DNA of 64,000 nucleotides from Chara braunii (lineage: Eukaryota; Plantae; Charophyceae). Positions 714-63,940 of this stretch are shown here, piece by piece (position 1 is the first letter of the stretch; the number at the start of each line of letters is the position of its first letter). The position numbers and the translations under genes are program-made. Below the pieces are notes generated by a model. The model did not search any database and was not told the origin of the DNA. It saw only the letters and a list, made by a program, of their open reading frames with translations. The DNA is taken from assembly GCA_003427395.1 (NCBI GenBank), contig BFEA01000016.1:969712-1033711 (forward strand). Direction: 5' to 3'.

Positions 714-1888
714 CTGCCAAACAGAAACTTAGAGTAAGTAGTGATCTCACTCTTTCATATGCAAGGCCAAACTACATTGGTAAGTACTCTCACCAGTCCC
801 CACGTCAAATCCTCATAGATTAGTTCATAAAACCCTCAGATGATTTATCCTTTATAACCAACTTACATATGACGTGGTGCTAGACCATTCAACTTAGAAA
901 CAATGTTTAGCATGCTTTAGGATATACACGAACAGATTGCAAACTACTTCTCTCTTCTTAGGACATATTACTAGACCGTTCAGCTTAGAAACAATGTCTA
1001 GTCGCCCTGAACTGTTTAATATCCAAAGTTTAATAATTTATGACTTTGTTCTCAAAATAAATGAAAATATGGGCAAGGGACTGAGCCATTGAACTTAGAA
1101 ATAATGCTCAGGTTGCCCAGATTACTTCCAACTATATTTTGTGGTTTTCCTTCTCTTCTTAGTGATATGGCTTAGCGCTGGACTATTCAACTTAAAAATC
1201 GTATTCAGCTGACAGTTCAAATGCAATTATAAATAAGGTATTTTCTGTTATAGTCAGTTTATACTTATGTACGTGGTTTTCAGGCTAAACCATTAAGCTT
1301 AGAAACAATGCTTAGCCTTACACCAGAGCTCCTCCCTCAGAAATAAAACAAGAGGCTGAACCATTCAGCTTAGAAATAATGTTCAACATATCCTCAAATC
1401 ATTCGAAGCATGAAGTTTGATTCTTCAGCCCAACCTCAGTCAGACCCCCCCCCAAAAAAATAAACAGACCAAGTCATTCACTTAGAAACAATTCTTAGTC
1501 TCAAAGATCAGCCAAGCGAACCCTTAGAAATAAATATAGCAATCAGGTCATTCAACTTAGAAACAATGTCTGGTCCTTCATAAAACAACCAAATAAACAT
1601 AGCCTTGGACCATTCAACTTAGAAACAATGCCCGGTCCTTGGTTAACCTAGTCAACTACATGCAAAAATGTCTTTCTCCCACCTTACCCCAGTTCATCCC
1701 TTAATCTGCTTTCAGTCAAAATAAAGAAGGAACTTAAGCTTCACTCTCACACGTTCTTTCTATTCAGTCTGATTGAGTCATGAAAAGAAAGCAAAAGTCA
1801 TAGGGGAACTCATGCATACAACAGTTAAACTAGAGGAAGATAGTCACACATGGGTATAAAAGGTTCATACACACAGAAGATGGTATAC
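714..1888 (-). other. Predicted intron in the LTR leader enclosing the hairpin array
   Basis: Minus-strand donor CAG|GTATAC at 1888 and acceptor TTTCTGTTTGGCAG| at 714; equivalent sites at 21109/19881 and 30261/29093, donor also at 63616. Confidence 0.5.
878..1636 (-). repeat. Hairpin array, loop type 1 (9 units)
   Basis: Core CATTCAACTTAGAAACAATG in units starting ~878, 970, 1081, 1177, 1282, 1355, 1466, 1542, 1605, each flanked by a different 5-9 bp inverted repeat. Confidence 0.9.
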
Positions 1889-5912: not shown

Positions 5913-5915
<3 letters not shown>

Positions 5916-7645: not shown

Positions 7646-8632
7646 TTAGGTCCTCTTCACACAAATCCTCTCTCTCCACAACCACAATTTAGAGGCAGTG
7701 CTTGATGTTTTATCGTGCCGCGAAGTCTCTTTCCTCGTTCCCCCAAGCATGGTCGGGTCGATATATTTCCCAGCTCTGTCAAAAACATTCCCTTCCATAT
7801 TAGTCTTTATTAGGCCACTTGCCTCATCTGCCCTTCGTTCATGACATAATTTTATTATGTGTCTCTCTTTGGCACAATGCCTGCAAGTGGTTTTCTTCCA
7901 ATCGACTTTTCCTCCTCGAAATTCATTGCCAGCGTCTAAATTCACCTGAGCTCGACTGTTTTTCTTTCTCTGGGCTTCGGCTAGATTAGGGCGCTCACGC
8001 CCTTTTTTCCAATTACCCCTCTCCTCATCTCTTCCTCCCTCTCGAGCACTAGACCACTTTCTTTGGATCCTCTTGCGGTGGAGAGGATCTCGTTCATTAC
8101 CTTCTATCATCTCCTCACCTCTGCCTGCCGGCTCACCCAATATCTCTCTTGGAGTCTTCCGCTTGCCTCTTCTGAGTTCCTCCAATTGCGCAATTCTCTC
8201 TCCTAATATCTTTGATTCTCTTTGTTCATCAGCTACCCGTTCTTGTACTGACGCATCTCCAACAACTAGCGCAATCTAAGGGATTCTGCTTGGCTGAATG
8301 AGATCATCTTCTTCTGGAAACCTTTTTCTCAGAAAGTTATCGAGCCCACTCCACATCCTTGACTTCAATACGAAAATGTCTACTTCCTCGCTGACGTTCT
8401 CACAAACGAATAACGGTAGCAGACTCGACATAGTTATCTTGTCCCACATCTTTGCGAGGCTAAAATCATAATAGGCGTGGAGAAAATCAGACAAATTCCT
8501 TCCTTGGAACAACAAAGCTCGGAGATTTGAGGTCATCGAGTCGTGCACCGACTCGCACAATAACACCTTCGTGAGGCAAGAACTCCTTCAAAGCAGGATC
8601 TTGGTGAAACCACTTTCTTCAAGTTGAGCCAT
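7646..8632 (-). pseudogene. gag: gag of E1, one frame with in-frame stops
   Basis: ATG at 8632, stops at 8590 and 8278, same frame through ORFs 8276-8566 and 7646-8185. CRHCAKERHIIKLC is a Cx2Cx4Hx4C knuckle. LLFQGRNLSDFL aligns with LYFNGRYVTGFV of the plus-strand gag. Confidence 0.85.
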
Positions 8633-8969: not shown

Positions 8970-9524
8970 CTATCGACTCAATGTTGCCCGAATCTCATCC
9001 CAATCTTCACTTCTTTCACCCGGATTGTGAGAGTTAGCATATGCGTCAACCACATTGGCCATGTTCCTAAGTCCTTGACTAGGGGGTAAAAACCTTAGGT
9101 CTAGGTACATGTCATATATCATTTCGTATGTATAGCGTTCATACCCGCATTCTTGCGTCCTCCCAGCGGCTTGTGCTGCGGCCTCTATCCTCGTCTGTCC
9201 CCCAAAACGTTTCTCTACGAGAAATTTGGGCAGGACAATTCGTAGCGGGGTTGAAGGTAAAACAAACTTTCCAACACACTTGACCACTATATGGGTCTCC
9301 ACCTGCTCTTCTCCTTCATCGACCTTGCCTCTCGCCCACTTTGTCATAGCTCCCTCAGCTATTCGCAAAGACCTCGCAAGCAGGCTCCCATGCCCAAACG
9401 CCAATTCGCCCCCATGTTTGACCCAAAATGAGGAAGAGACATATAGTGTTACCCTCATGATCGCACAACCCTGATCATCGTCAAATCCCGACTCGATCCA
9501 GACAAAAATACCCGTATCTATCAA
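8970..9524 (-). CDS. Accessory ORF family B member upstream of gag (unknown function, 5' end decayed)
   Basis: 184-codon open frame; GIFVWIES, TLYVSSSFW, VLPKFL and IYDMYLDLRFLPP align with ORFs 34989-35675 and 35653-36354. Confidence 0.65.
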   Translation of the reverse strand: MIDTGIFVWIESGFDDDQGCAIMRVTLYVSSSFWVKHGGELAFGHGSLLARSLRIAEGAMTKWARGKVDEGEEQVETHIVVKCVGKFVLPSTPLRIVLPKFLVEKRFGGQTRIEAAAQAAGRTQECGYERYTYEMIYDMYLDLRFLPPSQGLRNMANVVDAYANSHNPGERSEDWDEIRATLSR

Positions 9525-10074
9525 TATGCCCCACCATGATGAGATATATTATCCTTGACTTACATTGACAAAGATATCTCAAATCCATCTTCCTTTTTCA
9601 CTGGCAAAACCATATTGAGATCTTCCTTAGCAAAAGGCATCCTGAGCTGCCTTTGCTCTGGTCTGGGTTCTGCCCATCACATAAAAAACGTCCAGCATAC
9701 GCCTTCTGTTACTATGTTGATAATCACCTTCTACAATCTCTACTCTTAAAGTCTTAGCTTCAAATCATCTTTCACTAAAATTCATCCTTTCCAGTGTTTA
9801 CGACCCCCCAGCTTAGAGGGAATAATACCGGTAATATATCATGGTAATAATACATTCACAACTATCAAAATTCATAACAATAATTACGAATGGAAAATGA
9901 TAAATTACCTTAGTAACTGTCATCAACAATACTCATAAAAATCAAATACATTATACACAAGCTTGTCAGCTACCCAGAAGCATAAACAAATACCTCATAA
10001 TGATAAACTTTATACTAACAGACATATTATATGATAGCCACGTCTCCCCAACTTTAACAAAAGTATACTGTGAC

Positions 10075-11837: not shown

Positions 11838-14800
11838 TGTCGAGCGCATCGGTCCCATGCAGGGCGGGAACCTCCCGGTCTCGTCATGCAAGAGTTGGTC
11901 TAAACTCGCGATACACACGGAGCTTCCGCAAACCGCTCCGGCTGAGTGCGCCAACCATACCTCTCGTGAACCCCTACGACAGGATAGGGCCAACGCGAGG
12001 TACAACTTACCTCCACCTTACGGGAGTTGTCACCTCCTTTCGGTGGGCATATCCCCGCCGAACTATCTGTCCACAGTACGAAAGCTAATCAGTTGCAATC
12101 GCAGAGGTGGACCAGACGAGGGCGTTTCTCGTACGCTGTAGCGTAGGGGGTATGCGCGGCCCCACACCTCTATCGGATTCGCATGCGAACCTATGCACTG
12201 AGGATCTGAAGTCCCAAGCGTGGCTCGTTGTCAGTCGACTAGGACGCATCCCAGTCACCACGCATCACACCACACTTAGAACATAAAAAATAAACACACA
12301 CACACACACATACGAAACGACACAAAACAAAACAACACAACAACACTCCTACTTCTTTTTGTATCCAACCCATAACCTTCCGACGCGGAAATCGGATAGA
12401 CGACACGCGTGAGACTTAGTATAAAACCGCGCGAACACATGGTATTCCCACATCGACCACCAATGCATGCTTACTCAAGCGGTCGAAATCATGGCGTACT
12501 ATGTAGTACCCATAATCATTCGCTCCTCGATAATCTCGATGGTCGTGTTCGACACTCAAGTGTCCGTTGACACCCGCCATGAGGGGTTAATCTCTCGACG
12601 CTAAACAACTGCCCAGTGCGGTTGAGAACCACACCCTCTTCTGCACCCTGCGAAGAGTCGGTGGTACACAAGTTCACACATGTGGTGGCAATCATCTCTT
12701 ATCGCCCTGGAGACCAGCTCCATCATCCAGGGCCTTGAGATAACTCAAGCAGTTTGATTTTGGTGGCTTCCATTTACTACAACGTCCAACTATAAATATT
12801 CTAAAAAGTAAAGGGGTAAAAGGGGATCTCCCTTATCTCTTAACACATAATCTGTTTAACCCTTGCGCAAGGTCACAATAGGCCCCGCGAACACTCAAGG
12901 CATATGTATGTACATGTATATAAAGGGTTGTAAATATGTGACGATCACTCCTCATGATCACAGTGAGACTCCTCTCAGCCATATAGATATATGTGATCAC
13001 AGACAGTCAAATTCAAAGTCCGAACAACAAACATATATCGCTTTAACCATACAAGTCTCACTCTTTGTGCAACTCTCAAAATAAAATACTCAGTATCTTT
13101 GTTAAATGACAATTCAATAAAGTCCATGTGAAAAATCAGCAAAAAAAACAAATCACAGGGCTAAAGCCTTTAGGTTGAGTGGCAAGAGTGTATTGGAGTT
13201 GAGTCGTAAACTGACGAATCGACAACCGACCTGTCATCAGTGATAACAAAAGATGATCCTTGTAGGATCAAGCTGAATTTAACCAAAATCATGAATCAAA
13301 CAATCAAGAGGACCTGTAACATAAGACGGACCAATCCCCAAGCTAGATCTATAAGTCTAATAGAGAATAGTCTCCATATCATGATTTCACTCAAAATCGT
13401 CATAATTAACTAAGCCTAAATCTACCCCTAAACAAGTGTCCAAAGACATGTAGACCCTGACAAAATCTCCTTTATGCAGAGTGGATCGCCAGAATCGTCA
13501 CCTGTCAAAATATAATCTATCTCCTCTAAACTAAGAAAATTTCGGCAGCGCTTCCCGTAGGAAAAATGTTTTCTCAAAATTTATACTAGCTCAAATATGA
13601 AAACATAAATAATTTTTAACACTAGAAAGTCAAATGTTGTCTAACTCCCTGAATTACTAAACATTTTGGCAGCACTCTCTCATTAGAAAATGAGACTTCT
13701 CATATTTATTCTAAGTCAGATATGAACTCAAACATAAGACTTGAGTTCTATTAAGATAAAATTTAACTAACTCCTTAGATTTGTAGAAATTTCGGTAGCG
13801 CTCCCCATAGAGAAAGTAGCTTTCCAAAATTTATACAAAGCTAAGTTCAAAATCTAAAAATAATTTTGACTTTTCAAGGTCCAATTTTGTCTAACCCCCC
13901 GAATTAGCAAAACTTTGGGCAGCACTCCCCTTAAAAAATTAGACTTTCCATATTTTTACTAAGTCATATACAAAACTTAGACAAGTTGAACTTTAAAAAG
14001 TTAAATCGTGACTAACTCATTGGTTTTGTAAAAATTTCGACAGCGCTCCCCGTAGAGAAAGTAACTTACCAAGATTTATACAAGACCAAGTATAAGAAAA
14101 GATCCCTGAAAATGTTAGAATGAATATAAGTAGAAAAAACTTCGCTCAGAAAATGCAAGAATTGAACTAACTCTTACGACTCTAGCACGTAGCGAGCAAC
14201 TAAAGCAACTACCCGCCAAACAGAAACTTAGACTAAGTAGTGATTTCACTCAGCCATATACAAAGCCAGACCACATTGGTAAGTACTCTCACCAGTCCCT
14301 ACGTCAAATCCTCATAGATTAGTTCATGAAACCCTCAGATGATTTATCCTTTATACCCAACTTACATATTGCATGGTGCTAGACCATTCAACTTAGAAAC
14401 AATGTAGCATGCCTTAGGATATACACAAACAGATTCCACAACTACTTCTCTCTTCTTTGAGCATATAATTAGACCATTCAACTTAGAAACAATGTTTAGT
14501 CAGCCTGAACTGTTTAATATCAAAAGTTCAATAAAATCTGACTTTGTTTTCAAAAGAAATGAAAATATGGGTAGGAGACTGAGCCATTCAACTTAGAAAT
14601 ATTGCTCAGCTTGCCCAGATTACTTGCAATTATATTTTGTGGCTTTCCTTTTCTTCTCGGTGATATGACTTAGCGCTGGACCATTCAGCTTAAGAACAAT
14701 GTCCAACTGGCAGTTCACATGCAAATATAAATAAAATATTTTTTGTTATACTCAATTTATACTTATGTACGTGGTTTTCAGGCTAAACCATTAAGCTTAG

Positions 14801-17386
14801 AAACAATGCTTAACCTTACACTAAAGATCCTCCCTCAGAAATAAATAAGAGGCTGAACCATTCAACTTAGAAACAATGTTCAACCTATCATCGAATCATT
14901 CAAAGCATGAAGTTTGATTCTTCAACCCAACCTCAATCAGAAACCCCAAAAGAAATAGACAGACCAAACCATTCACGTAGAAACAATTCTTGGTCTCAAA
15001 GATCAGCCTAACGAACCTTTAAAAATAAATATAGCAACCAAGTCATTCAACTTAGAAACAATGTCTGGTCCGTCATAAAACAACCAAATAAACATAGCTC
15101 TTGCCATTCAGCTTAGAAACAATACCCAGTCCTTGGTTGACCCAGTCAACTACAAGCAAAACTGCTTTCCTCCCACCTTTCCCCAGTTCATCTCTTAATC
15201 TGTTTTCAGTCAAAGTAAAGAAGGAACTTAAGCTTTACTCTCACATATTCTTTCCATTCAGTCTGATTGAGTCATGAAAATAATGCAGAAGTCATAGGGG
15301 AACTCATGCATACAACAATCAAACTAGAGGGAGATAGTCACACATGGGTATACTGGGGTCATACAGACAGTAGATGGTATAACTGATAGTTCTCTGCATC
15401 CATGACTCCTCACGAGTTCCAGCAGAGCTCCCGCAATCGGTGGAAAGACTCCCCACAGAGTCTTGATGTGGTCCTACGGGTTGCATCCCACTTGCCGCCT
15501 TCCTCTCGTAACCACAGACTAGACTTAGAGTAAGAAGGGTAGAGGGAGAAACATTAAGACTCTCAGATACAAGAAGGGTGCTTTCAGGCTCGCGAGAGAG
15601 GACCTTGATTCCTTGACTCAGCCGAGAGCCCCGTAATGATGACCAAAGCGTAGCCAGAACTCGGTCAACTGAAGTCAAATTGTCAACCGTTGACTCCCTG
15701 CCAATCCTTTCAATTGCAGTAACGATCCCCCCTTCCTTTTTGGAGAGTTTGATCACCACACCTAGTCGTAGTCCCGCCACCTCCAACCAGACTTCTGCCA
15801 CGTAGCCCAATGGCAACAACTTGTAGCAAACCTTCATGCTCAACAAACCGTGCGCGACTACATTGCTCAAATGTAAATCCCAGCAGCGAAATCCATTAGC
15901 GCAAGAAAACTCAATAATATATGCCAACGTGCAGCGCAAAACCCAGGTGCAGTTATAGCAGGCACTCCATTGGTGCACTATAATGTACTACTACAGGCTC
16001 AGAAACACTATACATATAGCAATTGTGTATGCACTGCGTGCACAACGATTTGTATGGCAACCCCAGAAAAAGCTCCGAGCTCAGCAAGGTGAGGCAAAAG
16101 TGCAACGAGTTCAAAAATCTTGATTCAGAAATAAGAAGCACAACATCTGTTGCTCGAAGCTCACTAGGAGGGGTTAATAGTAGTTGTTAACTTCACAGTG
16201 ACCACGACAGTTCGGACTCCAAAACAGCGGGTACGCAATGTGCAATGATACATAGTCCGTTCACCAACGCCTCAGCAAAACACCGAGATGTCATAAGTCC
16301 GGCTCCTTGGACCGCAGGTGAACTTCTCCACTGGAGGCCAATCCTAACGGGAAGGTGTGAACCCCTCAATCCAGCACAACATGCTGTATCCGCTCACTCA
16401 ATTGACTGTAAACAATATTCGCCTGATTCTTACCCAGCAACGGTGGCTCATGCATGTAAGTCCAATCCTCCCTCTTGCTCGTTCTCACTTTGAGCCGTCA
16501 GTTTGACGCTTAGGGAGAGTCTCACATCTGCACTCGCCGGCAGCCTTGTAGTTCGACACCGTAACTCGACCTTCGGTCTACATCACACTGCTAGCTCGCC
16601 AGGTAAGTTTTCTCCCACTTTTTCATTCGCCCTCCCGTTCTCCCACTGAACCCGTTCCACTGGTGTATGACCGCTCCTATTACCAACAACCAACCGAGGA
16701 ATCAGGACTGAATGGGCGATCCAGATGAATGGTATGAGCAAAGCAAATACAACCACCACGATGAAGGGCGGCGCTCGGACGACTATCTCTGCCACACCAC
16801 TATCCTGTTGGCTTCAAACAAAGCAACGAGCGTCGCGACTAAAAGCAACTACACGCGAGAGGAATAGAGAGAGACTTCCTTTCTCGATAGAATAAACAAA
16901 TTCGAAATGAATCATCCCCCAGAATATGGAATTCAAGTTATACACCACTACTCGTGCGTAGGTGTGCGTAGGTGTGCGTGTGTGTGTGTGTGAGAGAGAG
17001 AGAGGGTATTCCACCATTAGGTTGCACAACGCGTCTGCCAACGGGTAAGTATCCAACCTCGTGTCCGGCCTTAGGTTACTCTTATCGATAGAATGAGCAA
17101 AATCGAATGAATCTTCTGCTAGAGCACGACAAAATACTCCACCACTCTGAAACTGTCTCCCCGCTCAAAGCCCGTTATTCGCACACCTAAAAAACTAGCC
17201 ACTAAGCTCTAATCCTAGCATCACCATTGAATCCACCAGTCCTCAATCCCCCCAGGACACACCTCCCCTCATCCGATTCTGTCAAGAGTTGGATGGGCTA
17301 ATCTCCTACCATATCCGCTCCTTCACACACTCCACGCATACTTCTTTTTCACCGACTCTTTCACCGACTCAGGATTCCGGTTCGCA
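11838..17386 (-). repeat. E1 5' LTR (~5.5 kb)
   Basis: TG at 11838 adjacent to the PBS; CA at 17385-17386 where homology to 1-3880 stops; right boundary less certain than left. Confidence 0.7.
14377..15130 (-). repeat. Hairpin array, loop type 1 (9 units)
   Basis: Unit-for-unit homologous to 878-1636. Confidence 0.9.
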
Positions 17387-18465: not shown

Positions 18466-20059
18466 TTAACGTCCAACCATAAAATGTTATTAAAAAAATC
18501 CCTCTTTTCTCTCGCTATAAGTCTGTCTGATCAAAACGCGCACGATCTTAAATCGATCGAGCGAATATACCACATACACATACCGGAGTTACAAAACATG
18601 AGGCGATCACTCTCACAATTACGATGTGACTCAAGATATACTTATGATCGCAGACAAAGTCAAATTTGAACATTCATTCACAAAACATACTTATAATCAT
18701 ATGAAGAATTCACCATTATCACACCACGCGCTACATAGGGTCAACTTCAACCGACCTCTCTGCACGCATACCCATTCCCTTATCCGCATAAGCCCCAACC
18801 TTTGTCAAACCTTCCAAAATAAAACACTCAGTACTTTTTAAATGGTCATTTAACAGAAATCCGGATAAAACCCCAAAGAAACAAATCAACCCACATGGGC
18901 TAAGGCCTTTAGATTGAGAAGCGAGAGTGAGTTAGAGTTGAGTCGGAAACCGACTTATTATCCAAAGATAACAAAAAATGATATTCGTAGGATCAACTTG
19001 AAGCTAGTCAAACCTCGAATCGATCTAATAAGAGTGACCTGCAACACAGCGCAGACCAGTGCCCAAACTATGCTTGAGTGATTACGAGATAATCCTACCT
19101 TCCTACCTCACCTCTGATACTTATTTGAAAATGCCAGAAATTTCAACGGTATCGCCTCTATGTGAGGGCAGGTTGCCAAACTCTCAAGGTTCTAAAATAT
19201 TTGAAGGCCTCTATATTTTATAAAATTTCGGCAGTGTTTTCCGTAGGGAAAGTACCTTTGAAAAATTTATGTACGACTGAATATAAAATCTGAAAGCGAT
19301 CTTCTAACTTTAGAAGTCAAATTTTGTCCAACTCCTTTATTTAGTAAAAAATTGGGCAGCTTCTCCTCTAGACACGTGGATCTATACTAAGTCAAATATA
19401 AACTCAAGATAAAAATTGAATTATGTCAGGGAAAAATTGAACGAACTCTTTTAGATTTGTAGAAATTTCAGCAACGCTTCCAGTAGGAAAAGTGTCTTTC
19501 CAAAATTTATACAAAGCTAAATATGAAATTTAAAAGTAACTCTGACTTCAAAAAGCTAATTTTTGAATTAGTAAAAATTTGGGCAACATCTCCTTTAGAG
19601 AAGTAGGCTTCCCATATTTTTACTAAGTCATGTACGAACTCAAACAAAAGTTGTACTTTGTAAAAAACAAATATTTGACTAACTCTTTGGATTTGCAAAA
19701 ATTTGGGCAACAATTCCCTTAGCGAACATGCTTCTCCAAGATTTATAAAAAGCCAAGAATAAGAAAACTTATCTAAAAAAATGTTGAAATTGAACTAAGT
19801 AAAATAAACTTAGTTAAAAAATGCAAGAATTGAACTAACTCCGATAATTCCAGCACATGGCGAGCATCTAAAGTAACTACCTATCAAAGTTAAGACTCAG
19901 AGCAAGTAGAGCCCATACTCAACCTTATGCAATTTCATATGACAATGGGTACTAAGTACTCTCACCAAAGAAGTCCCAAGTTGTTTTTCACAAAAGAAAT
20001 TTATTTACCCTCAGTTAAGTGAACCCCAATACCCCAACTTACATATGACATAAGAGAGA

Positions 20060-20852
20060 CTACAACATTCTACTTAGAAACAATATCAAGTTTTTGTCTT
20101 TATTTATAAACAAAACACGTGGCACGATAAAATTTATCTCTTCATTGGGCATATGGCTAAGCCATTCAACTTACAAACCCTGCTTAATCTCCCTGAACCA
20201 TTTAATATCCAAGTTATATATAGCTTTATGCATTTAGTGATCAAAGGTGAACGTATGACTAAACCATTCAACTTAGAAACAAACGTTCAGTCTGCCTGAA
20301 TCGGACCTTTTGATTATACTTTTAATTAAGTACTCTCTTCTTTTAGTGATAGGCTATAGTCAGACCATTCAACTTAGAAACTTTGTCTGACTTGCTGGTT
20401 CATATAAAATATATAACATACAATATAGGAAGAACTATTTTCATATTTTTCTATTTGCGTGCGTGACCTCTCAAACTAAGTCATTCAACTTAGAAACAAT
20501 ACTTAGTCCTAACCTCAATTCCTTTAGAAAGAAACACATAAAGAGTTGAGTCATTCAACTTAGAAACAAATACTTAACCCGTTCCTTCAAAATTCAAAGA
20601 AAAGCAGGGGTCCTATACCATTAAACTTAAAAACAAATGTCAGGGCCTGTTCAGAAACCTCCCCAAAAAGCAGGTAGACCAAGTCATTCAACTTAGAAAC
20701 AATCTTTGGTCGAGAAAAACAATCCATTCATGTCCTCAAATCAAAGCCACAACGACCAGACTATTTAACTTAGAGGAATTGTCTAACCTATCAGAAGACA
20801 GAACAAAGAAACATAGCAGTTCGACCATTCAACTTAAGAACAATGCCTAACC
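20060..20852 (-). repeat. Hairpin array, loop type 1 (10 units)
   Basis: Same loop with changed but paired stems, e.g. GTCAGAC..GTCTGAC, ACTAAGT..ACTTAGT, GACCAAG..TTTGGTC. Confidence 0.9.
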
Positions 20853-29253: not shown

Positions 29254-30011
29254 ATGCTAGACCATTCAACTTAGAAACAATGTCTAGCATGCCTTTAGAA
29301 TATACACGAACAGGTTGCACAACTACTTTTCTCTTCTTTGGACATATGACTAGACCATTTAACTTAGAAACAATGTCTAGTCGCCCTGAACTGTTTAATA
29401 ACCAAAGTTCAATAATTTCTGACTTTGTTTTCAAAAGGAATGAAAATATGGGAGGGGACTGAGCCATTAAGCTTAGAAACAATGCTCAACTTGCCCAAAC
29501 TACTTCCAATTATACTTCGTAATTTACCTTCTCTTCTTAATGATATGGCTTAGCGCTGGACCATTAAGCTTAGAAACAATGTCCAACTGCCAGTTCTCAT
29601 GCAAGTATAAATAAAGTACTTCCTGTTATACTCAGTTTATACTTATGTGCGTGGTTTTCAGGCTAAACCATTAAGCTTAGAAACAATGCTTAGCCTTAGA
29701 CCAGAAATCCTCCCTTAAAAATAAAACAAAAGGTTGAACCATTCAACTTAGAAACAATATTAATTCTATCCTCAAACCATTCAAAGCATGAAGTTGGATT
29801 TTTCCACCCAACTTCAGCCAGAAACCCCAAAAGAAATAGACAGACCAAGCCATTCACTTAGAAATAATGCTTGGTCCCGAAAATCAGCCAGACAAACCCT
29901 CAAAAATAAACATAGCAACCAGACTATTCAACTTAGAAACAATGCGTAGTTCTTCAAAAAACAGTCAAATAAACATAGCCCTGGGCCATTCATCTTAGAA
30001 ACAATGCCCCG
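29254..30011 (-). repeat. Hairpin array, loop type 1 (9 units)
   Basis: e.g. ATGCTAGAC-CATTCAACTTAGAAACAAT-GTCTAGCAT and GACTAGAC..GTCTAGTC. Confidence 0.9.
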
Positions 30012-30513
30012 TCCTTGGTTGACCCGGTCGAACGCATACAAACCGCCTTCCTCCCACATTCCCTCACTTCATCCCTAAGTCTGCTTTCAGTTAAAACAAA
30101 GAAAAACTTAAGCTTTCCACACATATTCCTTCCATTTAGTCCAATTAACTCCTAAAAAGAAAGCAAGAATCATAGCGGAACACATACATACAACAGTCAA
30201 AGCTAGAGGAAGATAGTCAAACATGGGTATAGTGGGTTCACACAGTCAGAAGGTGGTATACCTGTCAGTTCCCTGCCTCTAAAACCTCGCCTCGGTTCCG
30301 ACATAGCTCCCGCAATCGGTGGGTTGATTCCCTACAGAGTCTTGCTACGGTCCTACGGGTCACAACCCCGCCTGCCGCCTTCCTCTCAGAACAAGACTAG
30401 ACTTAGAGTAAGAAGGACAAAAAAAGAAGTTTCAAACGCTCGAGATACAAGAGAGGGACGAACTCAACTCCCAGGAGACGGCCTCAAAATCTTCGTGCAC
30501 CTGAGGGTCCCGC

Positions 30514-32240: not shown

Positions 32241-32324
<84 letters not shown>

Positions 32325-32406: not shown

Positions 32407-32475
<69 letters not shown>

Positions 32476-34183: not shown

Positions 34184-34240
34184 ACCGGCAAGCGTGTTTC
34201 GTGGGGATCATTAGGGAGGTAGTGCAGGGCCAGGAGGGGC

Positions 34241-34983: not shown

Positions 34984-34988
34984 AATGA

Positions 34989-39290: not shown

Positions 39291-39300
39291 GGACTGGTGC

Positions 39301-50159: not shown

Positions 50160-51990
50160 TGTCGAGCACATCGGTCCCGCACGGGGACCCTCCCAGCCGC
50201 GTAACGCAGAACTTGGCACGACTTGTCGTGGAGAGCGTTTGCCGCTCTGGCCGAGTGTGCCAGCCGTACCTCTCGCGAACCCCTATGACAGGACAGGGTC
50301 ACGCGAGACCGCTTACCTCCACCTGCGGGAGCTGTCACCATCCCTTAGGTGGGCGTATCCCCGCCGAGCTACTGAACTATATGCGAAGGCTCGTCGTATG
50401 CAATTTTAGAGGTGGCCCAACCAAGGGCATTTCTCGTTTGTTGAAGCATAGGGGGTACGTGCGGTCAACGCCCAAAATCAAACCCGTACGCGAATCGACG
50501 CACTGGGGGTTGAGGTCCTAAACGCGACTCGACGTCGGTCGATTAGGACACATCCTACCTACCACGCGTTACACCATAACACTCACACACATGGAAGGAC
50601 ACAAAACAAATAACACAACCACACAACAACACAACAATACAACAACTCTCATAGTCCCTTCAGTATCCGACCCATAACCTTCTGAAGCGAGAGTCAAATA
50701 GGCATCGCGGACTGAACTTAGTGTAAAAAGTTGGGCGGACTCATGGCCTTCTCATATTGACCAGCCATGTGTGAATATGCGAGCATTCGTACTGATGGGG
50801 TACTATGTAGTACTCGTAAGCGCGCGACCCTTGATAATCTCGAGGGTCATGTTCGACACTCAAGTGTCGGCTGACAAGCGCTTTGAGGGGTTAATCTCTC
50901 GACGCTAGACAACAGCCCTAACCCTAGGGTACGTTCAGCCTGCCCAGTTACCTTCATTTTATTCTTTATCTATTTCATTTTCTTCCTTAGTTATACCTGA
51001 CTTAGTGGCTTTCCCTACCGAGGGTGCCTGGTCTGTCAGGACTCAGAAGTATAAGTTCAGTAACATATGTATCAGATTTTATACTCTGGTTAACCAGTCA
51101 ATTCATGGCTTATGGCTAAGTCGCCCTAACCCTAGGGTACACTTAGTCTTATGCCTTTGTTCCCTCGGAAGAAACATACACCTCAACTCATTCAAATAAA
51201 CATCAGGATTCTGAGCCTTCCCTACCCAGATTGCCCGTCCTCCTGTCCAGAAACTCTCAAAAGAAACAACGACTGATCCATCCTACCCGGGTAGGACCAG
51301 CCATAAAAGCCATCAACGCAGCCCAACAAACATCAATAAACATAGCGTTGGGCCCACATCCACCCGGAGGAGCCCAACCTTGGGTTGACCCGGTCAAACA
51401 CATGCAAAACACCTTTCTCCCACCTTCCCCCCATTCCTTTATCTGGATTCACTCAAGGATTATCTGAACTCTCATATATATTCGTTTATTTAACCTTTCA
51501 CAAAGCATGTTCTGACATACGTAACAAAAATAAAGAATAATAACCTGTCATAGTTATATTCAGATACTTAAAAGGAATAATGCAGTTAGGGGAAGGGAGC
51601 ATACGCGTAAGACGAGAGTTATATCTGAAGTTCCCTGCCTCCAGAACCTCGCCTGGGCTCCGGCAGAGTTCCCGCAATCGGTGGGTGGACCTCGCACAAG
51701 GTCTTGTTGCGGTCCTACGGGTTGCAATCCCGCCTGCCGCCTTCCTCTCGTAACCTCAGACTAGACTTGGAGTAAGAAGAATAGAAGGAGATAAGTCAGA
51801 CGCTCGAGATACAAGGGAGGGACAAACTCAACTCGCAGGAGAGGGCCTTGAAATCTTAATACGCCAGGGGACCCCGCAATGATAGCCAATTACGCGGTGA
51901 AGATGATCGGATCACGGTCTGAACGCGAAGTACCATCCCCCAGACGATCCTCCAAGTTGCAACAATAACCCCCTCTGCCGATCCTGACCA
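50160..51990 (-). repeat. E2 3' LTR with ~2.1 kb internal deletion (true right end may be further right)
   Basis: 50160-50911 matches 60090-60828; 50912-51990 matches ~62915-63940. Confidence 0.8.
50912..51378 (-). repeat. Hairpin array, loop type 2, remainder after deletion
   Basis: e.g. GGCTAAGT-CGCCCTAACCCTAGGGTAC-ACTTAGTC at 51114. Confidence 0.8.
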
Positions 51991-53845: not shown

Positions 53846-56800
53846 ATGCATCCGGCCAACAGCGGGGTCAGGTTCATGGATCTTCGTTCCCCTACCTCGA
53901 CCAAATGCTTCTGGCCAGATTCGCTGGCCTAGTTCTTGCAGTGTTTCCCACGTACTTGGTCGTGATCACGACCGAGTTGAACTCGCAAGGACAAATATGA
54001 TACTTATGAAGAACACGCGATTGGGACGAACAAGGCTACCATGCTGAACATAACAACAACGTGCCGATGCCCTTCAAAGGAAACAATCGAAACAACGAAG
54101 ATGTGCTCCACGAAGGCACTGTAAGTAGCACAATCATGATAGCTTCATGACGGTTGGTTGGGCAACGAAGGAGAAGACCGTATAAACAGGGGAGGGGGAG
54201 CCACGGCCCCGAATACCATGAAGGCCGGTGCAAGTTATCCTACACTACTCATAATGGATCTTGAGCTAGAACGTGGCTGAATGCATTAGCACTTTGATGA
54301 ACTCCGCCTCAGGGCCTCAGGGCGCAGCTCCCACTGCTTATACCTCCCAAACCACACACCTATCGTCAATTCCGACGCTGTTATTCAATTCCCAGTGTAT
54401 CAAAACCCCTACTTCGCACCCTTCCTCGCCCGAATCCGCCAAGAAACGAGCGAGATTCACAACCTCTGTTTTCAACTTCCCTCTTTTCTCTCTTCCTCGA
54501 CACCTCCATGCCCAGTCTCCTTCCTTCTAACTCATCTCCTACACAACTAACACCAAAACTAACACTACTACTACACTCGTCCGGTCCAAGAACCCTTATC
54601 TACCACTTTCCCCCACTTGTTTTCGTTAAGAAACGAGCACGGTATAGCATTTTATTCCCGCCATAGCCCCTCATCTTTTTGTTTTCTCCTACCTTGCCTG
54701 CAATTGTATCTAGCGCGAGATCGCGCCCAGGTGCATCTCTCTTTATACCAGCCTGTCGAACGAAGCACAGGTTGCACACTGCTGTCCCTGCACGCTTCCA
54801 CGAGCGCCACCTCCTTTGGCCCATTACCCTGCTTCGGACAGTGGCTCACCATCCTCCTACTCCCACCGACATAGTCGCACTCAAAACTCACACATCTAGA
54901 CGAACGACACATACCCAGGCCATGCCCCCCCCTTCCTCGTTTCTTCTGCTGCTAGCGCAACTCCTCAGTAGCGGCCTATCCCACCGCTGTCGAATGGAGT
55001 TCAAGGCAACCATGACTACCTCAAGGGAAGCTTCAGAGGGAACCATCTACTAGAGACTTTATTAGTCTTTCGCCCCTATACCAAATCCGAGCCAGTGTCG
55101 CCTGCAGCCTCTGCTGACATCCCCTCTGGCCACGCCCTGCTCAACCACAACTCACCATCTTTCTAGTCCTAGCGGGAATGCTCACTTTGTGACCTGAAAT
55201 CTGCAATATGTGCAGATTTTGGGACAGCCAGTTGGAGGTTTTGGGCATGGTTCAGGTCACACTGCTGTGCCTCTTTTCAGGTGGGACAAAGCCCTGGTCG
55301 TCCGGAGCAATGACATTTTGGTACTCTGCTGGTCATACGGCGCCATCCACAGATGGTGCAAAAAACTTCAGGTCTTGAAGAAAATGCTAAAAAAAATGTA
55401 AAAATAAATAAATAAATAAAAATAAATAAATAAATAAAAATAAATAGGGCATTTCCCTTGCCCTGCGACTCCACAGGCTGCTGGCAAATGAGCACACAAA
55501 CGGTGCATCCGGGACCTCAACAAAATCTGTGCGACCTGTCCCGTGTCTCACAGGCCCCGACGACATGCTCCCACTCAATTCCTGCATCAGATTGCGGTTG
55601 GCAGGTGGAGGACCCGCAGGTGGTTCCCGTCACTCGGTTTCTTCTGCCTCGTTGGCTACGCACCACCAGTTGGCACATACGTTGCCTCCTCGACCCGCGT
55701 CGTGGGCCAGGTAGAAATAGAGAGACTTTGCCATCCCCCGAAGTCAGTGGTCAAGCTAGTCTGCCCTGTATCACTCAAATTTTTAACGAACGTCCCATAG
55801 GACCCAGGCCTGTATTTTTCAACAGTTTCTGTTCCAGCAGCTGTGCTAAGCCCGCTGGTCCCCGCACACAACCCCGGTACCAATACTGGCGCCGTGCCCC
55901 AGAAACGGGACCGACAAAAAAAATAATTAAAGAAAAAAAAATAAAACAAAAAAATACGAACATCGGGAACCAATGCTTCGGGGAGGGAGGCCGTCGGTGC
56001 CATTCTCAGTTCCGTCGACCGGGCCTACGGATGGGCCGACAACAAAACCAAGGGGGATAGCCCCGCCGAGCCCTCAACCCCTCGGCATCTTCAACCGCTG
56101 CAATGCTCCGTTGTCGCCGGTTGCCGCCCTCGATCCCTGTACCGTCGCTTTGAAAGTCCAATGTCATTACCAATAGTGCTAGTACCTAAGGCCGAGATGG
56201 ACCACTGCAAAATCCAATATAAATTGTTGCCGCACGACACGCGGGCCTACCAAAATACCCCAGGGCTACACCTTTGCGTACGGAGCAAGCTCACGACTGT
56301 CGACCTATGACGCCCGCCGCTCATAGGGCCTGGCTCCGTTTACAACTGTCAACCTCCCACATCTCCTGCGCGGAGGCCACCGCTTGCATTCTGTTTTCTC
56401 TTGCACGCCTCAATTACTGCCCAAAGCAACACCACTCCCGATGACGCATGTCGTATGAAGGTAAGTGTACCATGGTCACTTCAATAAAAGAAACATTTTC
56501 CTAGTTTTAATCAAAGCCAAAAATTTTGTTGGCGGGAACGCTAACTTTATAACATCAAAATAAAAATCATCACGCTCGCTTCAAAATTGCGCGCCCACAC
56601 ACACTTTGCTCTTCGTCAACCATTCAGTCAACGTGAACAAAACACAACCGCAACTCGTGCAGTGTACTCAAATTTCAAACCAAACCTATTTTCTGTCACT
56701 TGCAAAAAAACAGGGCGGATACCCTTGTAAGGGTATTCGCGCCGACAGTTTACCGGACCTTATTAAGTGACATTCTCGTCGCTTCGAATAATCAAGAGCT

Positions 56801-58719
56801 ACCAAAACATTCATAACTCCAAATGCTGACGAGAAAAGATCCAATCCGTTTGGTCAACTTGACTCCGTTTAAGGATCTTATCGAATGACCCTCGGTCACT
56901 ACTAATTACTGTCAAGGCTTCAACCTGGGTCTCCTGTGACCAGGCCTTGGACACCGGGATACTCGATCCGTACTACAGTGTCAATCTTGTTCCAAGTAGT
57001 CATTGACAATCCCCTTCCTTTGTCCTAGACATAATCTGGCTAATCGTTGGGTGTCATGTTTAGGCATCGTCCTGTATGCAGGGTCATAATTTAGGACGCG
57101 GATCCTAACCGAGACCTTTTGAAGGCACTATCGCCTTCCTCACAAAATATTCACAAAAATATATAACTTTTATCACAGATCTCTCCTGCAGTCTAGTACA
57201 GGAAGTCCAAGTCTCCATCTTGGCCCACCATAGTCTGGTTGATCGAGCCAGATCTATGGCCCACCTCGTTGTTATATTAGCGGCAGTGCCCTCGTTGGTT
57301 GCGCAACGATAAGCAAATTTCCTGATAAACACTTTATTAGGACTCTAAAAAAAACACGACAGACTCGACTCTTATCCCTCCGACATCCCGCGGGAATAAG
57401 ACTCTCTAAGGCGGTCACACCCCTCAAGCCTTATCCTTTGGTGAGTCGTGGTCTCGTTGCCAGGTTGCGCCGACCAGCGGCCCTCGCTGGGAGTTAGGTT
57501 CTACAGTTCCAGCGATGCTAAGTATAGCCCCCTAACTTGGCCTTACAAAATATGTCTCTTAGATTGACTCTATTGTGGTCGGACACTTTCTTTCAAAAAG
57601 TCATTAGAACAATCAAAGGATCATATACCGACTGCCCACGGGATTACGTGGAGGGGTAGTGCCTTTCTCAACCATTCCAACAAATTTCTCAATAATTCCA
57701 CAAGGTCGTGCCTCCCTTACTTTGATCAGAGTAGGTAAGGTCATACGTCTTTAGAGACATCTTTCAAAATGTCTTCCAGAATTCCATCATAATTGCCAGA
57801 AGTTTTCATCCATAATTCTCACAAAATTTTTGGTCTTTCCTCGTCAGGCTTTATCATTCAAACCGTTGTCCATGCCATTTCAAATCATTTAACCACCTTC
57901 CACATTTGAAGGGGACTCTCTTATAAAATCTCACAACCACCTCCCATATGGAGGGAAGTCAACCATAAAATACTCATTACTGATAGACCAACTTATGGGG
58001 TCCTCATCTCAGCTCAACAATTAATATTCGGCATGGACAAGCATCTAAGTCTCAAAAGACTCATAAATCCCTTGGGATTCTCACACATTTTCACCATACG
58101 AACTGCACTCCTTCTTCTTATACTCAGGCTATTGCCTGTCTGTAGGCAGATTGCGTGAGTATACCGAAGAGTAGACAATTTACACATTTCACATTTACAA
58201 AATACACGAGATGCATCCTGTACATCTCTCAGACAAAAAATCATCATACATCAGGATAAATCCACACACGTGAGAGTGATAATGATCGTCAGACAAAGGG
58301 GTAGTCTCAAGTCTTTATTATGTATAAAGTTGTGATATCTCACTAAAAAAAAAACAAAATAGCCCCAAAGCCACACACGTACTCAGAGTTGAACAACCTC
58401 AACTCACAGATGAGCAGGATAATCCCTACCTCAGAGTCATTTTGTCTTATCAGTTCCTTATCGGAACCTTACTGCCAAACTCTCATTCGCTCTCTAAAAT
58501 TTTATCTCTTCCAATGATCCTGATCATACAAAAAAAATAATAATAATAATATATATATTGTAATGCTATGTATTGTAATGGAGAATGAATAATTATGATA
58601 AATAATAATGATGTCATGATCAAATAATTTTTTTTTTCCAACCATGAAGGGTTTCAAATGCAACAATAATAAAAGTATTATATTATACTTCCTGAGGCTT
58701 TGACAAAAATATATTGTGT

Positions 58720-59040
58720 CGAGGAGCAGTGTAAACCTTTCTCAAAGGTATAACATCTTATTCCTTGAGCCCCGCTCATGAATCAAGCCTCAGTGCATCT
58801 GCCTCCGATTACAACACTTGCACCTTGTAGACCCTTGCCGATAAAATATACAACCTCACCATACATACTCCGGGATGATCTGTCCCTTCGAATGCAGATG
58901 AACCTACTTGACGCAAAAGTAGTTGGGGATTCACCCCCTACCTCTCTGTGGCAGGTAGTAGCCGCCTCCCCCAAAGGCCATGATCTGACACAGTTCAAAC
59001 ACTTTCCTCCTATTCGGTAGTAATATAGTCCTTTTACCAC
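58720..59040 (-). pseudogene. Accessory ORF (A-like) of E2
   Basis: Protein-level match to 10075-10400. Confidence 0.6.
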
Positions 59041-60067
59041 AAGGGATTAAATGACAACACCCCACTATGGACCAGGAACGTAGTTCTGGCGTAGGTCTCA
59101 CTACTACCTACAAGACTAGATTATGACTTCTTCAAAGCCACCTTTCAGAGAACAACAACATAGGGTTGCAACTTTCTTCAAGTTTCTTGGGGTAGATGTC
59201 ACACATTGACCATTTTCTCGTGGAATTTACTTTCCCAAGAAACTGGTCACTCCATTCACCTCCGAATCCGCATCAGACGTAGATCCTATGTAACATTTCT
59301 GACCCCTTTTCAAAGATCAACCCATGCATAAAGATTAAAAAACAAAATAGATATGAATGAATAATTCAGATAGACACAAATCCAGGGAGTTATACATAGC
59401 CTGAATGAAATCAGATAGATAGCTCATGTAGTTAGTTATAAATGAATAAGACTCAGATAAATAGCATCAAGCACATAGTCCTTATATGAGTCAACATTTA
59501 AATATGCTTACCTAAAAGAAAAAATTTGATGCAGATAGATGAATTTCATAGATACACTGAAACGTATAATCTCAAAATGATAAACTCAAATGCTTAAATA
59601 GATAGAATGTTTATGACTTTTCCTCATGAGAGTCCTTAGATAAGAAGAAAATACCTCTTTTCAAACTATTTTCTATCGCTAGCGTACTGTAATACTGCTA
59701 TGACAACTTAGGCAACTCATTGACTATGTTAAAGTACCAAAACTCCTTGCTTGGGTAACTGAATATGCAGAGTCGCGTCAAATGAACGGCGATCAGTCTA
59801 TGACATTAGATACGCATAGTATCGTCCGTATTACTTTATGGTACCTTGATCCGCAAATGTATAACTGCAGTTGCTACTACTGGGTGTCATAGTACAGAAA
59901 CGCCCCTATCTCACACCGCCTTTCAATAATGTAATCCTACCAGAACCATCAACAAACTATTCATGATTCACTTACCTAATGCCATTAACAAAATTTGTCG
60001 TCTTGCCTCAATCATCAGCCTGCACTTAACCTGGGTTCGTTCACTAAGGACCCCGATAGGCAGCCGA

Positions 60068-60087
60068 GATCCCCGGCAACGGCGCCA
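60068..60087 (-). promoter_or_regulatory. Primer-binding site complementary to the 3' end of plant tRNA-Asp(GUC)
   Basis: Minus strand TGGCGCCGTTGCCGGGGATC, 2 nt after the LTR end ..CGACA; same PBS type as Athila elements. Confidence 0.9.
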
Positions 60088-60089: not shown

Positions 60090-63000
60090 TGTCGAGCGCA
60101 TCGGTCCCGCACGGGGACCCTCCCGAGCGCGTCATGCAGGATTTGGCAGAACTTGTCGCGCAGAGCGTTTGCCACTCCGGCCGAGTGTGGCAGTTGTACC
60201 TCTCGCGAGCCCCTACGACAGGACAAGGTCACGCGAGGCACCGCTTACCTCCATCTGCGGGAGTTGTCACCATCCCTTAGGTGGGCGTATCCCCGCCGAG
60301 CTACTGAACCACATGCGAAGGCTCGTCGTATGCAATTGCAGAGGTGGCCCAGGCGAGAACGTTTCTCGTTCGCTGTAGCATAGGGGGTACGCGCGGTCAA
60401 CGCCCAAAATCGAACCGATACGCGAATTGACGCACTGGGGGGTTGAGGTCCCAAACGCGACTCGGCGTCGGTCGACTAGGACGCATCCTACATACCGCGT
60501 GTTACACCATAACACTCACACGCATGGAAGGACACAAAACAAATAACACAACAATACAACAACACACCTACTCCCTTCAGTATTCGACCCATAACCTTCT
60601 GAAGCGAGAGTCAGATAGGCATCGCGGACTGAACGTAGTGTAAAAAGTTGGGCGGACGCATAGCCTTCTCATATTGACCAGCCATGCGTGAATATGCGAG
60701 CATTCGCACTGATGGGGTACTATGTGGTACTCGTAATCGCGCGACCCTTGATAATCTCGAGGGTCATGTTCGACACTCAAGTGTCGGCTGACAAGCACTT
60801 TGAGGGGTTAATCTCTCGACGCTAGACAACCGCTGCGGCGGTTGGTCACCACACCCTCTTCTGCACCCTGTGGAGAGTGGGTGGTACACAGGTTCCAACC
60901 CGTGATGGCAATCGTCTCTTATGGCCCTGGAGACCAGCTCCATCATCTGGGGTCTGGAGAGAAATCAAGGGGTTTGACTTTGACGGCTGCCACGGACTAT
61001 AACGTCCAACTATAAAATTCTAAAAGCAAAAAGGATGAAAGGGGAATCTCCCTTTTCCCTCGAAGTATAATCTTTTTAACCCTTGCACACGGTCACAATA
61101 GGCCTTGCGAACACCCAACGCGTATGTATGTACATATATATATAGAAGGTTATGAATATGTGACGATCACTTCTCACAATCACAGTGAAATTCCTCTCAG
61201 CCTTATATACTTAAATGATTGTAGGCAATCAAATCCAAAGTCTGAATCACCAAACATACCTGCAATCACATCAAAGATTCAACCAAAAATCCATGCACTA
61301 CACGGGATCAACTTCAACCATTCTTTGCGCTCACACCCCTCGCTTTAGCCATACAAGCCTCACTCTTTGTGCAACTCTCAAAATAAAATACTCAACATCT
61401 TTATTAAATGACCATTCAATCAAAGTCCGGGTAAAAACACAACAAAACAAATCAAACTACATGGCCAAATCCTTTAGGTTGAGTGACAAGAGTGGATTAA
61501 AGTTGAGCCGAAAACTGACCTGTTATCAAAAGATAACAGAATAGCGATCCTTTGAAGGATCAGACTGAACGAATCGAACCTTCAAGTGAAATACAAAAAC
61601 CTGTATTACAGTACAGGCCAAAGAGAATCACTACTATGTTCATGTCAAAAGGAGAGTACTTCCCACTTCGTAACCTAGCTCCTCTACTAATCTCACTGTC
61701 AGCTCCCCTTATCAGTACCAAGTCACTGAGCATCTCTCCTACTCAGGGTGGATTTGCCAAGTTTCGCCTAACTAAAAATATTATAACTCCTCAAATTCAA
61801 CGAAATTTCGGCAGCGCTTTCCGTAGGAAAAGTGCCTTTCCAGAATTCCACGAGTCCAAAAATAACTGACTCTTTCAGATTTGTAGAAATTTCGGCAGCG
61901 CTTCCCGTAGGAACAGGAGGCTGCCAAGATTTATATAAAGCCGAAAACAGAAAGACAAAGCAAAGCTATACTTGGGACTAGCTTCTGGCACTTGCCTGAT
62001 AGTTAGGATTGAAGATAGTTTACACGATCCCCTTTCAGAAGATGGTATCGTAAGCTATCGTCAACTCTAACTTCAAGTAAGACCAGTCTTACCTTTATCC
62101 CAAACTCTCCCTCCCATCATCCATCTCATCTACCTATGGCTCCAGCACTTGACGAGCATCTAAGCAACTAACGTATCGAAAAAACGCCCCAAAGTGAGAG
62201 CGCACAAGCATGCATAAACAAACACCTCTCACAATCCCACATCAGTTTGGTCCAAGTAGTTCGTTACATCGCTCAGTTATTTTCCGTTTTAAGTCCTTCT
62301 TTCCTATGGCATACGATCAGACTCACCCTAATTAATGGGTATGCTTGACCTGCCTAAATAACAGATAGGGTACACACATCTGGACTGCCCTAACCCTAGG
62401 GTATGCGCAGCATAACACGAACTGTATACGTAATGCATATGACCAGACCGCCCTAACCCTAGGGTACGTCTGACTTCTGCCTAACTAACGACATGAAGCA
62501 TAGGACTGGGCTGCCCTTACCCTAGGGTGTGCCCAGTTTGCCTTAAACAAGGTTACATATGGCATAACATTAGACCATCCCTACCCAGGGGTAGACCTAA
62601 CTTGCCTGAACATAAGTACAAACGACAAAAAGTTGGACCACCTTAACCCTTGGGTACGTCCAACTTACACCACACTAACGACAAAAGCATATCACTAGGC
62701 CGCCCTAACCCTAGGGTACGCCTAGTCAGCCATACAACAGTTAATATGACACAAATACTTACACAAACTTTATGTTTTTCCTTCTCTTGTTAGGCAGCCG
62801 ATCGGACCTTTCCAACTAATAGAACTTTCGATCCGCCCTCATGTTTAGAAGGGAAAATAAAAACAGGTTTATACTAACTCTCTGCTCCTTGATGTTATCA
62901 TGAGCATACAACTAAACCGCCCTAACCCTAGGGTAGGTTCAACGTGCCCAGTTACCTTCATTTTATTCTTCATCTATTTCCTTTTCTTCCTTACTTTTAC

Positions 63001-63940
63001 CTGACTTACTGACTGGCTTTCCTTACCCAGGTGCCTGGTCTGTCAGAAGTATAAGTTCAATAATATATGTATGAATTTTTATACTCTGGTTGACCAGTTA
63101 ATTCATGGCTTATGGCTAAGCCGCCCTAACCCTAGGGTACGCTTAGTCTTATGCCTTTGTTCCCTCAGAGGAAACATACACCTCAACTCATTCAAATAAA
63201 CATCAGGATTCTGAGCCTTCCCTACCTAGGGTGCCCGTCCTCCTGTCCAGAAACCCTCCAAAGAAACAGCGACTGATCCATCCTACCCGGGTAGGACCAG
63301 CCATAATACGCAGCCCAACAAACATCAATAAACATAGCGTTGGGCCCACATCCACCCGGAGGAGCCCAACCTTGGGTTGACCCGGTCAAACACATGCAAA
63401 ACACCTTTCTCCCACCTTCCCCCCATTCCTTTATCTGGATTCATTCAAGGATTATCTGAACTCTCATATATATTCGTTTATTTAACCTTTCACAAAGCAT
63501 GTTCTGACATACGTAACAAAAATAAAGAATAATAACCTGTCATAGTTATATTCAGATACTTAAAAGGAATAATGCAGTTAGGGGAAGGGAGCATACGCGT
63601 AAGACGAGAGTTATACCTGAAGTTCCCTGCCTCCAGAACCCCGCCTAGGCTCCGGCAGAGTTTCCGCAATCGGTGGGTGGACCTACCACAAGGTCTTGTT
63701 GCGGTCCTACGGGTTGCAATCCCGCCTGCCACCTTCCTTTCGTAACCTCAGACAAGACTTAGAGTAAGAAGGATAGAAGGAGATAAGTTAAACGCTCGAG
63801 ATACAAGGGAGGGCCTTGAAATCTTAATACGCAAGGGGACCCCGCAATGATGGCCAATTACGCGGTGAAGATGATCAGATCACGGTCTGAACGCGAAGTA
63901 CCATCCCCCAGACGATCCTCCAAGTTGCCGATCCTGACCA
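60090..63940 (-). repeat. E2 5' LTR (right end interrupted or outside window)
   Basis: Begins TGTCGAGCG next to the PBS; colinear with 11838-15760. Confidence 0.8.
62316..63370 (-). repeat. Hairpin array, loop type 2 (~12-13 units)
   Basis: Core CGCCCTAACCCTAGGGTAC with unit-specific stems at 62380, 62443, 62505, 62570, 62632, 62694 (62-65 bp period), 62911, 63114, plus degenerate units. Confidence 0.9.

Follow-up and report, generated by a model that had tools for sequence, protein, structure and literature searches.

Results

A long terminal repeat retrotransposon family without pol carries arrays of inverted-repeat units

In this study, we have examined arrays of short inverted-repeat units that lie within the long terminal repeats (LTRs) of a retrotransposon family, in a 64-kb window of Chara braunii DNA (the window being the whole stretch that was analyzed). 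Comparison of the window with itself and of element termini delimited two minus-strand elements, E1 and E2, with LTRs of about 3.9 kb, a site like a primer-binding site (PBS) and runs like a polypurine tract (PPT); the direct terminal repeats, the TG...CA ends, the PBS and the PPT identify them as LTR retrotransposons. The LTRs of E1 are one ending at 2227 (3' LTR) and one at 11838-15721 (5' LTR). The 5' LTR of E2 (60090..63928, minus strand, about 3.84 kb) is homologous to the latter, carries the end TGTCGAGC on the plus strand at 60090 and has lost its initial bases through a small deletion. The PBS-like sequence TGGCGCCG..., which we take to match tRNA-Asp, lies 2 nt past this LTR end (60068..60087, minus strand). 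The 3' LTR of E2 (50160..51964, minus strand), preceded by a PPT-like run at 51965..51976 on the same strand, has an internal deletion of about 2.1 kb and retains six units. No pol was found between the LTRs of E1 or E2, whose lists of open reading frames (ORFs) hold no long ORF, and among the 18 ORFs scanned the Pfam matches to RT, RH and INT were confined to an unrelated neighbor at 42206-44875. The family is thus a non-autonomous, pol-less, high-copy LTR retrotransposon. Contig depth summed on conserved LTR blocks reached tens to hundreds of thousands in two DNA runs (4-18 for single listed contigs), a pile-up which indicates a large family and is not usable as a copy number. A weak Gag likeness (E=0.01) to the neighboring gypsy element suggests that the family may be gypsy-like, the order of pol domains being absent as both elements are without pol.

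Six arrays are present in the window. Their unit is a core, usually of 19 nt, between inverted arms of 6-9 bp, and the core (hereafter the loop) comes in two types of 19 nt each, T1 in four LTRs and T2 in two, in agreement with the subfamily difference given in a preliminary description of this DNA; the 20-mer named there as the T1 loop includes the closing G. All arrays lie on the minus strand. The T1 arrays are A1 (878..1637, nine units, 3' LTR of E1), A2 (14377..15131, nine units, 5' LTR of E1), A3 (20058..20852, ten units, in a distant LTR that is 66-72% identical to the others) and A4 (29255..30013, nine units, of which units 3-5 have in common a linked two-letter loop variant). The T2 arrays are A5, which is made of the six units left in the 3' LTR of E2, and A6 (62315..63371, 14 units with cores of 15-20 nt and arms of 6-9 bp), in the 5' LTR of E2 and on the sense strand of the element. 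At up to four mismatches the T1 20-mer has 32 matches, every one inside the four T1 arrays and none inverted in the window, and at up to three mismatches the T2 loop has eight sites (six in 62386-63140 and two in the deleted 3' LTR, with 0 expected from 100 shuffles). The two loops are no nearer to each other than random sequences (edit distance 12), and 7 of the 19 loop positions are invariant across 31 of 31 units. Exact loop patterns had no match in viral or metagenome contigs, a search of the two LTR types against Rfam, hammerhead retrozymes included, had 0 matches at E<=1, and ARAGORN found nothing. A reading of T2 as a telomere mimic (CCCTAA) was set aside, as the motif is not in T1; the accessible portion of PMC3622300 gives no Chara repeat.

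The arms covary and the loop is conserved

Across the arrays, 290 of 399 arm cells are Watson-Crick pairs, as compared to a permutation mean of 201 and maximum of 235, and arm pairing reached p=0.0002 in four of the five arrays tested and 0.023 in the fifth. Among the 31 T1 units with a 19-nt core (six T1 units of 18 or 20 nt were excluded), double changes were found at 8 of 8 arm pairs, in 48 cells against 25 when shuffled, a count that none of 500 shuffles reached. Controls slid away from the true T1 arms were 14.6-44.6% paired, against 80.8% at the arms themselves. An inner T1 mini-stem was considered as a conserved structure and rejected, since it has 0 double changes and one of its pairs is open in 8 of 30 rows.

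The pattern of identity is also unequal. Between orthologous units, loops are 85-93% identical, spacers 64-89% and arms 57-82%. The loops thus lie above the spacers and the arms below them, which argues that sequence is kept in the loop and pairing alone in the arms. Paralogous units within one LTR share 84-91% identity in their loops, 46-54% in their arms and 29-31% in their spacers.

The scaffold is inherited and the T2 array is a mosaic

When loops were removed, the segment 62680-63400 aligned to the four T1 arrays with scores of 140, 121, 150 and 81, against 2-mer shuffle maxima of 48, 41, 36 and 43. Segment-order shuffles matched the observed score in 0, 1, 0 and 0 of 200 trials, so that unit order matters. 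For the seven distal, positionally orthologous units of A6 (62800..63371, minus strand), the positional counterpart was the best T1 match in 20 of 25 unit-array comparisons, and in six of the seven units the best T1 match beat the best match within the array. Since the loop-less alignment runs in the same unit order, the scaffold is inherited between T1 and T2 LTRs; this bears out what had been proposed and speaks against an independent origin of the two arrays. The stem at 63114 with its counterpart at 1283, and AAACATAGC before the final unit, are as first described. The flanking motifs CATATG(A/G)C and GCC-T(G/A)AAC, which had been taken as homologous flanks, are indeed present but surround many paralogous units, and so reflect homology at the level of the monomer rather than of position.

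Within this inherited scaffold, the loop switch is not cleanly binary. The 14 units of A6 (62323-63363) comprise seven canonical T2 units (edit distance <=4), five T2-like variants (distance 6-8), one unit at 62808 that is nearer to T1 than to T2 (7 against 10) and a final unit at 63346 that resembles neither (12 and 10, respectively). Seven units belong to an expansion with a 63-bp period (62315..62728, minus strand), found in the T2 array only and absent from T1 arrays, with loops at 62323, 62386, 62449, 62512, 62576, 62639 and 62701 (spacing 63, 63, 63, 64, 63 and 62; period 62-64 bp); six of these seven find their best flank match in another A6 unit. In the orthologous part, the canonical T2 loop stands at two of seven units only (62918 and 63122), the units at 63018, 63217 and 63279 have shortened T2-like cores, and a decayed remnant of a T1-like unit is left at 63190..63206 (minus strand; edit distance 8 to T1 and 14 to T2). 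The E2 array is therefore a mosaic. T2 occurs well above chance. The earlier statement that the loop had been replaced in nearly all units overstated the extent (canonical T2 in 7 of 14 units and 2 of 7 orthologous ones). The change was also not clock-like: in the two best-aligned segments, A6 is 69-73% identical to the T1 LTRs, and A3, which is as far off at 66-72%, is nonetheless T1, so that T1 stayed as it was and the switch took place in the T2 lineage. A nesting of T2 within T1 was dropped, the LTR tree having bootstrap values of 47 and 78.

Loops are probably exchanged between units and vary in the wider family

The linked variant C5A + A7G occurs in unit 5 of A1, A2 and A4, and also in units 3 and 4 of A4 alone, and the units that carry it keep their own unit-specific arms. 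Similarly, a 20-nt loop is found in three units, in A3 only. From these patterns we infer loop-limited exchange between units. Loops look homogenized within an LTR while arms stay position-specific, and the homogenization claimed at the outset is upheld by the gap between paralogous loops and arms and by the spread of the linked variant over three adjacent units of a single LTR.

Family contigs of one DNA run were mapped on 62430-62960, and the figures that follow cover 40 of 56 differences. In canonical-type loops, all four differences restore the letter of T2, which holds 98-100% of the depth; these four deviations are private to the E2 copy. In the arms, six of nine differences restore Watson-Crick pairs. 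The 28 differences with a share below 0.9 fell in spacers (22), arms (4) and the T1-like unit (2), and none in a canonical loop. Contig depth over the family peaks on the loops, and other copies have gained and lost units. At two unit positions, loose ends of contigs from other copies hold a third, intermediate loop, in which the T2 frame is combined with the T1 hexamer AACTTA. The picture of two discrete loop types thus holds in part only, since the mosaic E2 array and this third type make the variation partly continuous, which weighs in part against the identity tag proposed at the outset.

Position in the LTR, strand and expression

The array lies 0.56-1.6 kb from the 5' end of the LTR and upstream of a candidate TATA box, a TA run at 61134..61144 (minus strand) with the same at the homologous place in 12890-12950. 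This candidate stands about 1.2 kb downstream of the array in two of the four LTR stretches compared and not in the other two. Position and the candidate TATA box in two LTRs suggest that the array is in U3, which would place it near the 3' end of the genomic RNA. It is 2.2-3.3 kb upstream of the PBS, within the LTR, and not in the 5' leader past the PBS. Two ways of calling the folding strand were rejected: G.U counts, whose ratio is explained by composition, and polymorphic arm sites, of which four of four toggle to sense-strand G.U, too few for a call. Two RNA runs gave 122 and 3585 reads on 4.1 kb, mostly less than 95% alike and with opposite or mixed strand bias.

Candidate partner proteins

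ORF-A of E1 (8970..9548, minus strand; 192 aa from stop to stop) lies upstream of gag and is a candidate accessory protein. It has 12 relatives at E<=0.001, and all nine named ones are Chara braunii proteins; ORF-A is conserved in two or more groups that have diverged from each other (54-65% and 28-36% identity). Neither ORF-A nor its relatives had a Pfam match, a PDB search with the ORF-A sequence gave no match, and its predicted model, of low confidence (pLDDT 53), gave no fold match. The Gag-like ORF of E1 is broken (7646..8620, minus strand; Gag-like ORF at 7646-8275) and has three Chara braunii matches, two of them labeled CCHC-type. The matches of the Gag-like ORF and of the ORF upstream of it are to hypothetical proteins of this alga, in accordance with the source of the window. 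In E2, tblastn with six ORF-A and Gag queries found no trace of either. Non-coding internal blocks are common to both elements at 69-77% identity (5191-7251 and 10052-10632 in E1, 56499-59287 in E2); kept although E2 lost ORF-A and gag, they are candidate cis signals. Between ORF-A and gag of E1, a small hairpin (8775-8812) holds 11 nt identical to the third loop type.

Discussion

A putative protein-docking array on element RNA

The explanation that we tentatively prefer, and that quite possibly holds, is that of a multivalent protein-docking array on the single-stranded RNA of the element, reshaped by loop-limited conversion. A conserved loop between arms kept for pairing alone is what one would expect of a single-stranded docking site repeated for avidity. 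The 9-14 inverted-repeat units, with their covarying arms and a 19-nt core shared within a subfamily, would likely form hairpins on the element RNA, and these could serve as repeated docking sites for a putative sequence-reading protein, for which the candidates are Gag, ORF-A (acting in trans for E2) or a host protein. Held for pairing alone, the arms would be free to diverge between units, which may limit the loss of repeats during reverse transcription. In retroviral transduction, repeats were deleted, and non-identical stems together with random linkers cured the deletion (PMC4403262). With arms and spacers that diverge, the array would be guarded against loss of repeats in reverse transcription, the difficulty for which the synthetic MBSV5 array was designed (PMC4403262), and the loop, probably the sole long identity between units, would be left as the only conversion patch. 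Short double template switches or conversion might then spread a new loop through the array, assisted by local tandem duplication, in waves that would be successive and incomplete (T1, its variants, T2).

Several observations weigh against this explanation. The units are related, so that cell counts are not independent events and are inflated, and self-correction of palindromes in replication can imitate covariation. The inner T1 mini-stem lacks covariation. G.U-type cells are more numerous on the sense strand (46 against 25), but the composition of the spacers predicts about 2:1, and folding z-scores are alike on both strands. In folds of whole arrays, whichever strand is taken, just 2-8 of the 9-14 units adopt a hairpin of their own, and the folding of T1 units is weak (mean z -1.0 to -1.8). 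Few RNA reads cover the array; they come from both strands and track DNA depth. Finally, a stepwise path from T1 to T2 leans on one line of contig loose ends and on variants.

A more far-reaching version of the docking array, which we regard as unlikely, would make it a natural, recombination-resistant RNA tag: Gag or the Chara-specific ORF-A would read a fixed loop borne on stems that are non-identical by design, and a subfamily that changed its partner would acquire a new loop throughout the array by loop-limited template switching. Such a tag would act as a self/non-self code that chooses which non-autonomous copies are mobilized.

Alternative explanations

The absence of a strand preference in folding would also fit a DNA-level enhancer array in U3, in which a host or element factor would bind the 19-bp core as duplex DNA, as has been proposed for Sirevirus repeated motifs, Tnt1 BII boxes or VANC motifs, and the switch would alter the specificity of expression or anti-silencing. 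The array is upstream of the candidate TATA box, as Sirevirus motifs are (PMC2829016), and the tandem multiplication of a family-specific motif, which the 63-bp expansion fits, is the pattern of VANC motifs (PMC5735166). We nevertheless consider this somewhat unlikely: a double-stranded site gives no reason for two-sided arm changes that preserve pairs, nor for arms that are less conserved than spacers. The preliminary analogy with VANC, a plain double-stranded motif, leaves the covarying arms unexplained in the same way.

A non-adaptive origin, in which palindrome correction by template switching keeps the arms paired, conversion homogenizes the loops and T2 drifted through the array, has the advantage that neither process requires selection, and both the decayed units of the mosaic E2 array and the variable unit number among copies agree with it. 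It is nonetheless doubtful, as T1 has been retained by LTRs with about 30% divergence, in which paralogous spacers are at random identity, homogenization ends at the loop edge, 7 of 19 loop positions do not vary in any of 31 units, no loop is inverted, and the private changes of the E2 copy depart from a better-paired family majority.

Based on the loop sequences, one could also imagine an RNA-RNA code without a protein reader, in which the loops are kissing or dimerization sites by which genomes of the same type pair and are co-packaged, in parallel with the subtype-specific palindromes of the HIV-1 dimerization initiation site. The T2 loop holds a 10-nt palindrome with a predicted self-duplex of -19 to -20 kcal/mol, T1 with T2 is predicted at -3.6 to -5.1 kcal/mol, and the value for self-pairing of the T1 variant spread within A4 is -8.9. 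However, the same value is only -1.0 to -2.2 for the canonical T1 loop, which is the most frequent one in the window, an internal hairpin competes with the T2 palindrome, and dimerization signals are usually in the 5' leader, which together make this code improbable. It is highly improbable that the loops are guides or small-RNA sources, which would be released by processing or displayed so as to pair with a target at another place, as had also been suggested: the fixed 19-nt core in a repeated scaffold and a stretch of 11 nt upstream of E1 gag that matches the third loop type (8799; 6 of 100 shuffles also match) would suit this, but the loops are uniform rather than diverse, Dicer needs longer arms than the 6-9 bp found here, Rfam has no match, and no target was found in the window, where only four 5-mismatch matches lie outside the arrays in 64 kb, at chance level.

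Comparison with known systems

The array most resembles the LTR motifs of Sireviruses, in position and family specificity. These motifs are similar in being multi-copy, in the upstream half of the LTR, with inverted symmetry, family-specific versions, hairpin potential and changes in copy number (PMC2829016; PMC4728375). Sireviruses are Ty1/copia elements, unlike the pol-less and perhaps gypsy-like Chara family, and in their palindromes the arms are conserved (CGG-CCG core) and the center is variable, whereas in the Chara array the 19-nt center is conserved and the arms covary (PMC2829016; PMC4728375). The conservation pattern of Sirevirus palindromes is thus inverted here. VANC motifs of VANDAL transposons share with the array a short family-specific motif multiplied in non-coding sequence, partly by tandem repeats, but VANC binds 8-9-bp double-stranded motifs of DNA transposons, and this binding has been shown (PMC5735166); in Chara, 19 nt lie within covarying arms, for a putative partner, in an LTR element whose ORF-A has no Pfam match, and the motif was replaced at orthologous positions, unlike VANC motifs. 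The RcRE of HERV-K is a structured RNA element in LTR U3 (PMC11379458). The Chara array, with its covarying arms and candidate place in U3, may be one as well, and the Chara family has in ORF-A an extra ORF that could be an accessory protein. The RcRE is, however, a single fold of 433 nt with a proven partner and export role (PMC11379458), as compared to small units over about 1 kb with a putative function. In Tnt1, the BII boxes of U3 are repeated in the LTR promoter of differently regulated subfamilies, and they bind host DNA-binding factors; the available portion of that source does not describe covarying hairpins (PMC3316501). The same design exists in artificial form: the synthetic MBSV5 MS2 array combines a fixed loop read by a protein with differing stems and linkers and resists deletion in retroviral transduction, but it was engineered with a known coat-protein partner and is an analogy only (PMC4403262). 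Retroviral psi is found in the 5' leader after the PBS, and the Chara array is not there. The array is a member of none of these systems. Our literature search, which covered titles and abstract openings, most subscription papers being outside reach, found no description of such an array, and we regard it as a real, constrained LTR array with a subfamily loop switch that is apparently undescribed.

The recognition of their own RNA by LTR retrotransposon proteins, and its hijacking by non-autonomous copies, are to our knowledge poorly defined in plants and algae. The Chara family, which has many copies, offers a natural swap experiment, as a single orthologous scaffold bears two or more loop types. 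Concerted evolution confined to a 19-nt patch is also a testable footprint of template switching by reverse transcriptase and, should there be a cognate protein, every pair of loop and protein would be a candidate for an orthogonal RNA tag.

Other features of the window

A second repeated motif of the LTRs has two copies at 61803..61914 (strand not assigned), with one mismatch per E2 copy, and 16 copies in five LTRs. It forms repeats of about 125/250 bp in T1 and T2 LTRs (288-560, 13537-14060, 19223-19726, 28423-28940 and 61803-61914), did not switch between the two types and could itself be the enhancer. After each of the two 5' LTRs comes sequence with homology to the internal region on the PPT side (15721-17351 and 63929-63940), so that the elements seem to be LTR-internal-LTR-internal tandems. 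The LTRs of E2 are identical over 300 nt (51316-51615 and 63308-63607) and 92-96% identical elsewhere, through recent conversion or as an effect of assembly.

The LTR that carries A4 is split by a Ty3/gypsy element with gag-PR-RT-RH-INT (30514-48193), which has several extra ORFs without a Pfam match upstream of its gag (33468-39290). A 98-bp tandem repeat of 4.2 copies lies at 49312-49779, and an inverted pair of about 125 nt at 74% identity (21689-21816 and 26772-26894) possibly represents the ends of a DNA transposon.

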